From the NCBI GenBank assembly GCA_963702425.1, contig CAVPCQ010000016.1, positions 64,001-128,000 of the forward strand: 64,000 nucleotides of DNA. The letters are read 5' to 3'. The DNA comes from an uncultured Acidobacteriota bacterium (GTDB taxonomy: Bacteria; Acidobacteriota; Polarisedimenticolia; J045). Shown here one piece after another: positions 47,787 through 61,152 of this stretch (the first letter of the stretch is position 1; each line of letters opens with the position of its first letter). The notes beneath the pieces were generated by a model, which did not search any database, was not told the DNA's origin, and saw nothing but the letters and a program-made list of their open reading frames with translations. The translations under genes were made by a program, and so were the position numbers.

Positions 47787-48353
47787 TCAGCGGCGTGGAC
47801 CAGCGGCATCACGGCCGTGCCGGCCCGTGTGCTGCGCACTCCTGAGTGGCCACACCACTTCACCACGACGAGAAGCGGGCTCCAGCAGTACGACTGCCTT
47901 CTCTGCCAGCCGGCGAGCGGACTCAGTTCGCCCGCCGACAAGATAGCGCCGGATAGCCGTTGCGGGATCTTCACCTTCGTTGGCGTCGATGGAGCGGCCG
48001 ATGAGATCGACGCAGCGCCCAAGATACTCGGAGCGCACCGTGGACCGACCGAACCGAGGGTCGCCCAGCGCGCGCTCGCCCCGTCGCCTGGGAGGGAAAG
48101 CGCCTTCGGGATGAAGGCGGAAGAAAGTCCACACATCCCAGTCCTTCACGCCGTTTCGGCCGTCGACGAAGTGTAGGGCCGCGCCCTGGCAAAGCGCAGT
48201 GCACAACACGCGTGCTCGATAGAGCCGGCCCCAGCGTGGATTGCGACGAAAGAACGCCTCGCGGTCTTCCGCCGCGATCAACGCCAGTCGGGCGAGAACC
48301 GCGTCGTCGATCGGCAAGTAACTGCGCTCCGTGACCCCGTTTGCGTCAGGCAT
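47787..48353 (-). CDS. hypothetical protein, possible nucleotidyltransferase fold (last cassette)
   Basis: AGGAGG RBS, ATG 31 bp after an attC-like site; CQGAALH..GVKDWDVW..RCVDLIGR. Confidence 0.65.
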   Translation of the reverse strand: MPDANGVTERSYLPIDDAVLARLALIAAEDREAFFRRNPRWGRLYRARVLCTALCQGAALHFVDGRNGVKDWDVWTFFRLHPEGAFPPRRRGERALGDPRFGRSTVRSEYLGRCVDLIGRSIDANEGEDPATAIRRYLVGGRTESARRLAEKAVVLLEPASRRGEVVWPLRSAQHTGRHGRDAAGPRR

Positions 48354-48383
48354 CGCACCTCCTGCAGAGGCGGTATTCATGCG

Positions 48384-48443
48384 GTCCAGCGCTCCGGTTC
48401 AGCGGCGGCGAGAAACGCCCTCCGCTGCATGCTGTTGTTCGGC
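48384..48443 (-). mobile_element. attC-like site A (60 bp)
   Basis: Minus strand GCCGAAC-AACAGCATGCAGCGGA...CCGCTGAACCGGAGC-GCTGGAC; imperfect palindrome homologous to the other three sites. Confidence 0.75.
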
Positions 48444-48511
48444 GCCCCCTCGCCGATGACTTGGTCCACGTGAACCGAGGGAATGTGCGCCCGAGTTGCG
48501 ATGCCCGCCGC

Positions 48512-50045
48512 CTATGCCTTCTCGCTGGCGCCGGCATCTACCCGCTGCTCCAGGTCTCCGAGCACATCTTCGATCTGCGCCAGCGCCGAGCGCAGGTCGT
48601 CGGCGATCTCCTGGGCGAGCAGGTGCGGGTCGGGCAGGTTGGCCGAGTCCTCCAGGCTCTCGTCGCGCAGCCAGAAGATGTCGAGGCTCACCTTGTCGCG
48701 GCTGAGGATCTCGTCGTAGGTGTACGGCCGCCAGCGGCCTTCGGGCGTCGCCTCGGACCAGGTCGCCTGCGGTTGTTCCGGTCGCCGGGGCGGTAGCACG
48801 CGACGAACTCGTCGAGGTCCGCGCGCGTCATGCGGCTTGGTCTTGAGCGTGAAGTGCTTGTTGGTGCGCAGGTCGTAGACCCAGACGGTCTTCGTCCAGG
48901 GCTTCTTCGCTCGCCGGCTTGCGGTCGAAGAAGAGCACGTTGGCCTTCACGCCCTGCGCGTAGAAGATGCCGGTCGGCAGGCGCAGCAGCGTGTGCACCT
49001 CGCACTCGTGCAGCAGCTTGCGGCGCACGGTCTCGCCCGCTCCGCCTTCGAAGAGCACGTTGTCGGGCACGACCACGGCGGCGCGGCCGTGGATCTTGAG
49101 CAGCGACTTGACGTGCTGGACGAAGTTGAGCTGCTTGTTCGAGGTCGTCGTCCAGAAGTCGGGGCGGTTGTAGGTGAGCGTCTGGCGGTCGGTCTCGCCC
49201 TCCTCGTTCACGACCGTGATCTGACGACTTCTTGCCGAAGGGTGGATTGGTCACGACCACGTCGGCGTGTGCGCCCGGCTCGTCGCGCAGCGCATCGTCG
49301 GTGCGGATCGGCGGCTCGTGCTCGTCGGCGCCGTCGGGGCCGATGCCGTGCAGGAAGAGGTTCATCGCGCACAGGCGCGAGACGTTGTGGCACGAGCTCC
49401 ACCCCGCGCAGCGCCTCGAAGCGCAGGTGGCTGCTTCTGGTCGCGGTCGAGCTCGGAGTGGTTCGTCAGGTAGTCGTGCGCGGCGAGGAGGAAGCCGCCC
49501 GTGCCGCAGGCGGGGTCGCAGACGATCTCGCCCGGCTGCGGGCGCACGCAGTCCACGATGGCGTCGATGAGCGCGCGCGGCGTGAAGTACTGCCCCGCGC
49601 CGCCCTTCACGTCCTGGGCGTTGCGCTCCAGCAGGCCCTCGTAGGCGTCGCCCTTCACGTCGGCCGACATCGCTGAGCCAGTTCTCCTTGCCGATCAGCT
49701 CGACGATCGAGCTGGCGCAGCTTGGCCGGGTCCTGGATCTTGTTCTGCGCCTTGCCGAAGATCAGGCCGAGCATCCCGCCCTGCTTGCCCGAGCATCCGC
49801 AGCGTCTCGCGGTAGTGCTCCTCCAGCTCGACGCCCTCCATCTGCGGCGCCGCGAGGTCGGCCCAGCGGTAGCCCTCCGGGATCGGCTGTGGCTCGCCGG
49901 TGAGCTGCGCGCGCTCGTCGGCCATCTTGAGGAAGAGCAGGAAGGTGAGCTGCTCCAGGTAGTCCTGGTAGGACAGCCCGTCGTCGCGCAGGACGTTGCA
50001 GTAGGACCAGAGCTTCTGGACGATGCGGTTGGCGGCGTCGCTCAT
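48512..50045 (-). CDS. hsdM: type I R-M methyltransferase subunit (multiple frameshifts)
   Basis: [63 protein letters not shown] across frames. Confidence 0.9.
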
Positions 50046-60196: not shown

Positions 60197-61030
60197 GGTT
60201 CCTTTCGAAACATTGTAGTCTTTTGTTTCCACGATGAACTCAGCGAGCGTCTTTGCCGCGTTCACCACTAGGACTGCGTGTCGTTTCGCGGGCTGATAGG
60301 AGCGCACGTGCGCGTCGCCCATCTTATTTCGGAGACCCGCCAATCCAGAAACGACGCTCGTCAGACCGCCAAGTACTTGCTTCAGTGGCTCCGCGATGTC
60401 GGTTCGGCCGGGTTCGAGATTGAGGAGCTTCTGGACACGCTTGTACAGCTTCGTGAGGTCGCCGTCATACGGCGGTAGGCTCTCTTCCGAGAGTTCCTGC
60501 TCGACGTCGGATAGAACAGCCTCCAGGAGCGACCGGGCGTTGGTGATGGCGCCATCGAAGTCGTTCTCAGCCAGCTTCCTATCGCACTTCTTGCTCTGTT
60601 GTTCGATGAAGAGCTGATTGATCTCGCGAGATGCTTCCGAAAGGTAGTTGAAGGCAACCGCGCCGCCGGTGAGACTCCGCACGGAGAGGAACTCGCCGTC
60701 GCGGGCGATCTCAAGCCCGTCGTATTTCAGGTAGTCGTTCAAGTAGGAAACCGCGTTGTCGCGCGGATTCTCGAACTCGAGCCATTCACGTGGATCGAAA
60801 ACTGTGCGGATCAGGGCTGGGAGCTGCGCCGTACCGTTCAAGGCTCGAATCTTCTCCTCCGCGTAGTACCAGCGGGAAGGAAAACCTTGGCCGTAGACGT
60901 CGTTCGCGCCGAACTCGTTGAACAACCGGACGAGGACCGGTCCGCTCTTGTAGGGCGAAACATGGGAGTCGCCCGTGACGATCTTCGCAAGGGCCGAAAT
61001 GCTGCGTTCGGAGATCTTCATGCGTGCCAC
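60191..61030 (-). CDS. abortive infection family protein (Abi_C, HEPN-like)
   Basis: GAITNARSLLE, LRNKMGDAH, AVLVVNAAKTLAEF; N-terminal YKSGPVLVRLF..PSRW; start GTG 61030 or ATG 61021. Confidence 0.82.
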   Translation of the reverse strand: MARMKISERSISALAKIVTGDSHVSPYKSGPVLVRLFNEFGANDVYGQGFPSRWYYAEEKIRALNGTAQLPALIRTVFDPREWLEFENPRDNAVSYLNDYLKYDGLEIARDGEFLSVRSLTGGAVAFNYLSEASREINQLFIEQQSKKCDRKLAENDFDGAITNARSLLEAVLSDVEQELSEESLPPYDGDLTKLYKRVQKLLNLEPGRTDIAEPLKQVLGGLTSVVSGLAGLRNKMGDAHVRSYQPAKRHAVLVVNAAKTLAEFIVETKDYNVSKGTN

Positions 61031-61042
61031 TTCCGGTCGGGC

Positions 61043-61075
61043 AGCTAACTAGACTTCATTTGCGGTCGGGCTAAC
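61043..61075 (-). mobile_element. attI-like site at the head of the array
   Basis: Minus strand GTTAGCC..AAATGAAGTCTA-GTTAGCT 13 bp before the first cassette gene; no attC-type hairpin. Confidence 0.45.
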
Positions 61076-61122
61076 CCACTTCGGGCCGCGAGACTGTCGA
61101 CCAAGCAGGCGCACCCCGGCTC

Positions 61123-61152
61123 TTTCTACGCCGGCATCCCCCGCGCCGTCAA
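61123..61152 (-). promoter_or_regulatory. Pc-like promoter facing the cassette array
   Basis: TTGACG-18 bp-TAGAAA on the minus strand upstream of the attI-like site. Confidence 0.45.

Follow-up and report, generated by a model that had tools for sequence, protein, structure and literature searches.

The window considered here is a stretch of 64,000 nucleotides from an uncultured Acidobacteriota of soil type (G000:C16:64001-128000), part of the 259-kb contig C16 in a metagenome-assembled genome (MAG) of 42 contigs and 5.1 Mb, 91% complete with 5.85% contamination. Positions are those of the window unless a genome or a contig is prefixed; G001 to G004 are sister genomes of the same genus as the source, G000. 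Very probably, 47768-61046 of the window (13.3 kb) is a chromosomal integron cassette array that has no integrase on its contig and keeps an attI-type head of its own, adjoining it at 61047-61200. In other words, it is a CALIN (a group of clustered attC sites that has no integron integrase) with a head. The credible genes from 47.8 to 61.0 kb lie on the minus strand without exception. The most interesting point is the head, an orphan but apparently used attI.

The array is marked out by four sites, A to D. The first-pass annotation of this DNA had pointed to four related imperfect palindromes with a common core, each between co-oriented genes, and had read them as attC sites. The covariance model used here, R1, was built solely from these four, aligned on the gene strand. 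Over 40000-64000 of the window it returns the four at 67-80 bits on the minus strand, within 5 nt of the positions first given, and the next match has 11.9 bits (E 0.28). On the minus strand each of the four contains the 9-mer core TGCAGCGGA, and each stands directly 3' of a minus-strand gene; at site D the stop codon of the AbiJ-like gene falls within the first box.

Whether such sites are attC was probed indirectly, through R1 near known intI genes, pairing across 35 sites and a reciprocal test on a class 1 integron. In the integron intI1-aac(6')-IIa-catB3-qacEdelta1-sul1 of plasmid NZ_CP123896.1, R1 finds both cassette attC sites, at 36.5 and 32.9 bits (E 1.4e-8 and 1.4e-7), over their full length and with 14 of 14 pairs standard. 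A weaker match within intI1 (16.9 bits) looks false. Behind the intact intI of G004 there are six R1 matches. Ten intI loci were fetched and seven were searched (L051, L052 and L056 were left out); around intact intI genes of other genera and families R1 gives 18 plus-strand matches in five of the seven loci, all downstream and on the same strand, with one extra row that is the minus-strand echo of one site, and it gives no match around the intI genes of G006 and G037. A dispersed repeat of the repetitive extragenic palindromic (REP) type was considered as well. The core TGCAGCGGA occurs at 89 genome positions, both strands counted. The full R1 element has six copies in the 5.1 Mb, with 150 of 14321 first-look candidates scored: the four in the window, C24:80869-80947 and C17:46324-46392. 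An unfiltered nhmmer scan of the genome returns the four window sites and the C24 copy at E<0.001. Because both scans return few copies genome-wide, the palindromes are not a dispersed REP-like repeat. We regard their attC identity as established.

A separate observation concerns the sister array. One R1 site in G004 (L021:8141-8210) is about 90% identical over 63-67 nt to a sequence in 3660 plasmid records, and in one such record this attC-type sequence sits exactly between aac(6')-IIa and catB3, downstream of intI1. A chromosomal attC of an Acidobacteriota MAG that is about 90% like the attC of aac(6')-IIa-type cassettes is a lead on the origin of that attC type.

The head of about 150 nt is homologous to a region lying some 400-700 nt behind the intact intI of G004, G001 and G002; it is 80% identical over 114 nt to the stretch behind the G004 gene. 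It contains a conserved pair of the form TTGAC-N17-TA(G/C)AA(A/G), a core of about 65 nt and an end in ...TAG/TT, where the stroke marks the junction. Among genomes of the genus, five yielded 17 usable copies in all; in the family's 18 other genomes there is no copy. The junction G is kept in 13 of the 17, and TT comes next in 11 of those. Four of the five other intI-less heads that were fetched have co-oriented attC matches behind them; the weak copy at G004:C4:3225095 has no attC match beside it. The first-pass annotation had called the head attI/Pc-like. The attI half of this stands, given the homology to the intI-proximal region and the fixed G. The cassette promoter (Pc) half comes from the conservation of the pair, and a sigma-70 scan of it was negative.

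Three side observations belong to the head. Its core of about 65 nt (61060-61125), between the promoter-like pair and the crossover, is conserved in the 17 copies and could possibly hold integrase binding sites or be a 5' leader; judged by eye, the covariation for an RNA hairpin there is mixed. In G001, the heads L039, L079 and L081 are followed by identical sequence past the junction, so that they are either duplicated head-plus-cassette modules or redundant contigs. G000 has a second head copy on C24 (C24:79253-80947, L046), lacking the TAG/TT end and followed by an attC match.

Relatives of G000 allow this locus to be compared directly. In G004 the flanking genes are on one contig, 6.5 kb apart against 13.6 kb in G000. 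The BLAST breakpoints between the two are at 47767 and 61047, with flanks 98.0% and 98.8% identical, and between the breakpoints the inserts (13.3 kb in G000, 6.1 kb in G004) have nothing in common. The G004 insert contains five R1 matches, four of them ending in GTT. None of the nine open reading frames (ORFs) in this G004 array has a PADLOC match; its cargo comprises a MazF toxin, a GDSL lipase, a cupin and DUFs. G003 shares with G000 the Schlafen-like gene and the cassette border at site B, and then has other cassettes; its cargo includes a Schlafen/EC042_2821 protein (PDC-S19). G000 and G003 are collinear right after the crossover point of site B, which is a true cassette border. At the same flank G001 has two R1 matches and a cargo that includes an Mrr type IV enzyme. 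Gene content at the locus is thus not invariant among relatives; the insert differs between G000, G004, G003 and G001.

The homology on the symporter side ends at the same G in all five congeneric genomes, and the first bases past it are TTAGCT, TTGGAG, GTAGAT, CTAGGC and TTTCGG. The heads at this locus are orthologous, as G000, G004 and G003 share 10 locus-specific nucleotides before the G, unlike the head on the intI side; from the next base on, the three diverge. Homologous recombination cannot produce so sharp a switch without homology downstream, whereas site-specific exchange at an attI without an integrase can. What we have is a clean natural experiment in which five species carry, at a single locus, five different first cassettes, all beginning after the same base. 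It suggests that an integrase-less array can keep a working insertion site.

No tyrosine recombinase had been seen in the window, and PF00589 and TIGR02249 find no match on the whole 259-kb contig. The locus has four attC sites and lacks the layout of a complete integron, with intI beside attI and cassettes; the description as an integrase-less cluster therefore holds. Searching the genome for an intI in trans gave one, a pseudogene: the best integron-integrase match in G000 lies at C4:34503-35289 (L010), in three frames and cut by the contig end. Aligned with its syntenic counterpart in G004, which is intact (93.6% identity over 5.3 kb), it shows five deletions of one base each and a TAG. This is the sole integron integrase found in G000, and intI is intact in three sister species. 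G004 (96% complete, 5 contigs) has one intI at E<=1e-30 and five to six heads. Among 41 genomes (G000 and its relatives, with the unpublished genome G034 counting towards this tally and towards no other claim), 21 have integron integrases above the NCBIfam cut-off.

Some further observations were made on these integrase loci and their surroundings. In the usual integron layout intI is divergent from the cassettes. Across the class considered here, the cassettes are downstream of intI and on the same strand, in 24 of 24 forward matches (L048, L049, L050, L054, L055, L038). In G000 itself, a 1.1-kb stretch at C32:122791-124022 is 96% identical to a cassette behind the G004 intI, and the attC match on C17 (C17:46324-46392, L009) stands alone in a low-GC patch.

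An account can be given of how the array came about. From the comparison of genomes, an integron integrase working in trans would have inserted or exchanged cassettes, both at the head and at attC sites, and this would be the intI that is still intact in three sister species. The genes would be read on the minus strand, away from the head. More generally, one intI may serve several scattered promoter/attI heads in the genus, and the head at the symporter locus may never have had an integrase beside it in any of the five species and yet have taken different first cassettes; we consider the case for this wider proposal to be evenly balanced. In G000 the system looks largely frozen: the sole intI found has become a pseudogene, GTT is missing from three of the four attC sites, and both hsdM and hsdR are disrupted.

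Covariation across 35 sites pooled from all loci speaks for the helices of an attC. The share of paired cells is 93.6%, whereas shuffles give 83.6% (0 of 500 shuffles reach the observed value), and 36 cells are changed on both sides against 9.7 in shuffles. Of the outer A-A-C/G-T-T pairs, the three are standard in 33, 29 and 32 sites out of 35, with the middle pair A-U in 27. These figures come from an alignment fitted to the model and so lean towards it. Several results weigh against reading the stretch as an integron array, and we give them together. In the window, GTT is found in one of the four sites and AAC in two of the four. The AAC-like and GTT-like boxes first described are canonical at C and compensated at D; those of A and B are off-consensus. 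According to Frumerie et al. 2010 (PMC2811028), on class 1 integrons, one partner may carry a change at the second or third position of the triplet, but both partners need the same first base; on that ground A and D may still be functional sites, which is less probable for B. Folded as single-stranded DNA, B is clearly better than shuffles (z -3.5/-3.2) and C less markedly so (-2.2/-1.6), and the hairpins of A (z -0.3) and D (z -0.8) are no better than shuffles. The spacing of 9 kb between B and A exceeds the 4-kb clustering distance of IntegronFinder, and a default run of that program would probably report a three-site CALIN and a lone site. Behind the last gene R1 detects no attC in the 221-nt tail, and in G001 the 9-kb unit described below abuts the flank with no attC behind it. 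The promoter of the head is not called by a scan with the sigma-70 consensus. Since the source is a MAG, a second intI may be unassembled.

Other explanations have to be weighed against this background. Defence genes cluster in islands generally, and one might see here an ordinary defence island at a recombination hot spot, with palindromes that are REP-like or terminator-like and unrelated to integrons. The poor folding of A and D would suit this, and a terminator scan found nothing special (7 terminator-like sites against 7.9 expected). We think it most improbable, and largely refuted, in view of the six element copies in 5.1 Mb, the junction fixed at one G in five genomes, and the recognition by a window-derived R1 of class 1 attC sites and of arrays behind intI in five other lineages. 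Only slightly less remote is the possibility that the head contains no true attI and that an integrase encoded elsewhere put the cassettes into a secondary genomic site. Such insertion, a route put forward for CALINs and for lone sites, is among the possible CALIN origins given in Cury 2016 (PMC4889954), and efficient insertion outside att sites is reported in the 2023 preprint bioRxiv 10.1101/2022.09.11.507474. A chance site, however, would not share about 150 nt with the intI-proximal region of G004, G001 and G002 right up to the crossover, nor would it be a repeated, genus-specific module with arrays behind it.

Two more readings retain somewhat more weight. The frameshifts in hsdM, hsdR and intI might be assembly errors and both the restriction-modification (R-M) system and the integrase really intact; G000 is a MAG, and in every public run the share of the sampled words that is present stays below a fifth. 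We find this improbable, as the 18 indels fall in hsdR (8), hsdM (9) and the Schlafen-like gene (1) with none in the PDC-S27 gene between them, they are mostly not in homopolymers, the broken genes also carry more substitutions (94.1% and 95.9% identity against 98.8%), and the flanks, aligned to G004 along 3.8 and 3.0 kb, have at most about one gap. The array could also be a relic that lost its own intI here, the differences between species having arisen by deletion or by homologous exchange of whole arrays and not by recombination in trans at the head. This is unlikely in our view, though it is the strongest of the four: loss of intI is a listed origin of CALINs (in the same part of PMC4889954), the intI of G000 has decayed, and the three G001 heads that are alike past the junction suggest duplication of head plus cassette, or redundancy of the assembly. 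On the other hand, the head lies about 35 nt from the stop of the symporter gene, the contig carries no integrase remnant, G000, G004 and G003 keep their locus-specific 10 nt and yet differ from the first base after the crossover, and an equally sharp switch is seen at site B between G000 and G003. An array with a head used in trans accounts better for these observations, and it is under that reading that we describe the cargo (Table 1).

Table 1. Features of the cassette array and its head, in window coordinates, with the comparison to the copy of the 9-kb unit in G001
Feature	Position	Strand	Evidence or remark	Compared with G001
Array head: promoter-like pair, conserved core of ~65 nt, attI-like end ...TCTAG	61047..61200	-	crossover between 61047 and 61046	
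Cassette 1: AbiJ-like, C-terminal Abi_C (HEPN)	60191..61030	-	PF14355, PADLOC AbiJ	
attC site D	60128..60200	-	R1 78.3 bits; boxes AGC/GCT, compensated pair	
Cassette 2, gene 1: ThsB (TIR-like)	59610..60113	-	PF08937, PADLOC ThsB	
Cassette 2, gene 2: ThsA, hydrophobic N-terminus and Macro domain	58693..59610	-	PF20016, PADLOC ThsA	
attC site C	58616..58683	-	R1 67.5 bits; boxes AAC/GTT, sole canonical site of the four	
Cassette 3: NDT/TIR-like flavodoxin-fold domain and helical domain, 341 aa	57590..58612	-	weak fold matches	
attC site B	57505..57590	-	R1 70.5 bits; boxes AAG/ATT	
Schlafen-like AlbA_2 and HATPase_c_4 protein	56065..57456	-	PF04326, PF13749	1 one-base indel, 97.8% identity
hsdR pseudogene (HSDR_N, ResIII, EcoEI_R_C in three frames)	53193..56050	-	Pfam matches	8 one-base indels, 95.9% identity
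hsdS specificity subunit, frame open	51790..53196	-	PADLOC Specificity_I E 5e-71	
PDC-S27 candidate defence protein (AAA ATPase and DUF234), intact	50042..51511	-	PADLOC PDLC04985 E 2.3e-212	0 indels over 1470 nt, 98.8% identity
hsdM pseudogene	48512..50033	-	profile match split over four frames	9 one-base indels, 94.1% identity
attC site A	48379..48447	-	R1 80.2 bits; boxes AAC/GCT	
Last gene: NTase-like, 188 aa	47787..48353	-	fold matches; no attC detected behind	

The two cassettes nearest the head appear to be small defence systems. The product of cassette 1 matches PF14355 Abi_C (E 5.5e-22) and the PADLOC AbiJ profile PDLC02347 (E 3.2e-26, aa 21-271 of 279); with a C-terminal Abi_C/HEPN domain and an AbiJ-type N-terminus it may be counted, by profile, as an AbiJ member, and would be a HEPN abortive-infection protein. 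In cassette 2, ThsB matches PF08937 (E 2.9e-21) and, over its full length, PADLOC PDLC00429 (E 1.5e-77). ThsA matches PF20016 ThsA_Macro (E 1.1e-45 at aa 87-265) and the PADLOC ThsA profile (E 6.2e-65); a hydrophobic segment at aa 23-42 is above the hydropathy threshold, and a second one is likely, by eye, at about aa 55-70. ThsB with a Macro-type ThsA has the predicted architecture of type II Thoeris, which would pair a TIR sensor with a membrane effector gated through the Macro domain.

Between sites B and A lies a 9-kb unit of five genes (Schlafen-like, hsdR, hsdS, PDC-S27 and hsdM). No attC is detected within it, the best R1 score being 11.9 bits. Its own promoter-like site (57469-57440) is conserved in G003. 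The Schlafen-like protein matches PF04326 (E 6.7e-24) and PF13749 (E 1.8e-27), and a frameshift at about 56181 fuses it, in frame, to the hsdR N-terminus. The Pfam matches of hsdR are spread over three separate ORFs (PDLC03049 was tried for mapping hsdR and given up, its match being too weak), and hsdM is in four frames with one TGA. The type I R-M system (hsdR, hsdM, hsdS) is not intact in G000.

The same unit is found in G001 at 96% identity, and there hsdR and hsdM are intact ORFs. Most of the 18 indels between the two copies are outside homopolymers, and hsdM and hsdR account for 17. This pattern of indels and identities across the genes points to real decay of the R-M system with continued constraint on PDC-S27, not to random assembly error. 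Among public sequencing runs, none contained more than 0.18 of the words sampled from the hsdM stretch. R1 searched on G001:C169 and G003:C4 gives nothing below E 0.086. Because no attC stands behind the unit in G001, it may not move as a cassette. Whatever the mobility of the unit, a gradient of decay runs through a single array, with the R-M genes and the integrase dead and PDC-S27 and the small cassettes still open.

Two proteins of the array belong to no Pfam family. The 341-aa product of cassette 3 has 720 homologues. Its N-terminal half is conserved, with an invariant motif around D85-D88, N90, N92, Y95-G98 and R100-H101. It matches a PADLOC TIR effector (E 2.5e-6). An AlphaFold2 (AF2) model with a predicted local distance difference test (pLDDT) score of 81 has TIR domains as its best Foldseek matches (E 0.008-0.02), followed by nucleoside deoxyribosyltransferase (NDT; 0.04), and PF05014 is present in 21% of the members of an Atlas neighbour cluster. 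Its ORF meets no stop codon ahead of site B and continues for 70 codons through the attC to 57371; the first box of site B is GAAG where relatives have the TAAC type.

The last gene encodes 188 aa, and the 361 homologues of its product, spread across phyla, are 50-82% identical to it. Residues G57, D71 and D73 are invariant, the AF2 model has pLDDT 91, and its best structural neighbours are nearly all nucleotidyltransferases (NTases), at Z 5.9-4.8, below the safe level of the tool. Within the class it is present in one of 119 genomes, as expected for sporadic cargo. The flank behind this gene looks attC-like by eye; R1 gives it at most 5.5 bits (E 0.16 in 221 nt) and a fifth attC was rejected. 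For both proteins a PDB sequence search found nothing and Foldseek gave no match at E<=0.001; NCBIfam has no useful name for seven of nine island and flank proteins. The NDT/TIR-like and NTase-like labels, which come from weak model comparisons, are leads only.

The first-pass annotation held that every recognisable cassette is defensive and that the unrecognised ones were therefore strong candidates for undescribed defence systems. By profile the first part is borne out for AbiJ/Abi_C, for ThsB with ThsA-Macro and for the type I R-M genes, except that the R-M system is dead in G000. The ATPase-nuclease that had been put forward as an undescribed system is no such thing, since it matches the PADLOC candidate PDC-S27 (Table 1). 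Defence by association is weaker than was claimed, because the G004 array at the same locus has no PADLOC match; that the remaining open cassettes act against phages is what we would infer from their families.

Some features of the surroundings may be added. The GC content is about 0.72 in the flanks, 0.63-0.73 at 48-57.5 kb and 0.54-0.59 at 57.5-61.0 kb, in agreement with the lower GC noted earlier for 57.6-61.1 kb. Next to the head, a single frame of 867 aa occupies 61234-63837 on the minus strand. It combines a fragment of a TonB-dependent receptor barrel (aa 33-272) with a sodium:solute symporter (aa 428-781), the explanation being either over-extension of a GC-rich ORF or a truncated receptor gene upstream. 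A gathering-threshold scan of the whole window with Rfam, which has no attC family, found nothing inside the island. Outside it, the scan matched an nhaA-I riboswitch (19882-19938) and a tRNA (25351-25423), both unrelated to the island.

How much of this is new? A review lists integrons in Acidobacteriota, and CALINs have been described before, together with ways in which they may originate. Nor are defence genes new as cassettes of integrons and CALINs: the survey bioRxiv 10.1101/2024.07.02.601686, which also counted CALIN cassettes, describes, in the portion on which we draw, sedentary chromosomal integrons and CALINs with attC-bounded defence cassettes, an Abi_C protein (compare 'Taranis') and two-gene systems, all of which resemble what is seen here. 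According to the same portion, no system in integrons has more than two components, and long loci do not occur there. The window differs in having a five-gene unit of 9 kb, with a three-component type I R-M system, between two attC sites, decayed and perhaps immobile. It also differs from the Vibrio-type arrays treated there in its host, an Acidobacteriota, and in that intI is co-oriented with the cassettes and not divergent.

Compared with the attC of class 1 resistance cassettes (aac(6')-IIa, catB3), the architecture is the same and the alignment to R1 runs end to end, while three of the four window sites have GCT or ATT for GTT and the sequence is GC-rich. The CALIN of IntegronFinder, as defined in the relevant part of PMC4889954, is alike in having at least two attC sites, no nearby intI and an intI elsewhere in the genome; the window array differs in that it has kept a head, of which a genome has several, and this head is homologous to the attI region near intI. 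That part of the paper also states that most integrons have no known attI, and that when a rearrangement has split off a CALIN, its cassettes cannot be driven by Pc. In type II Thoeris, as presented in bioRxiv 10.1101/2024.01.03.573942, there is likewise a TIR protein ThsB, together with a ThsA that is transmembrane at its N-terminus and has its Macro domain at the C-terminus; here one integron cassette of 1.5 kb in an Acidobacteriota genome holds the whole predicted system, which is known from its genes. A narrow literature search on integrons found no description of CALINs that keep a head of the intI-proximal type or of several heads per integrase. Several promoter/attI heads per integrase, and a multi-gene unit between two attC sites, seem to be less described.

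The findings have some wider consequences. The picture of integrons as stores of anti-phage genes is extended beyond Vibrio-type arrays and takes in uncultured Acidobacteriota, a candidate attI with a promoter-like head is gained for a lineage that had no known one, and two widespread families that have no Pfam entry (the NDT/TIR-like and the NTase-like) are flagged as single-gene cassettes. If one integrase does serve scattered heads, the comparison of the five species would be direct evidence for orphan attI platforms as live insertion sites on which an integrase acts in trans. These would then be distributed stores of defence genes, able to hold multi-gene units, such as a type I R-M system with embedded accessory genes, of the kind that integron surveys report as absent.

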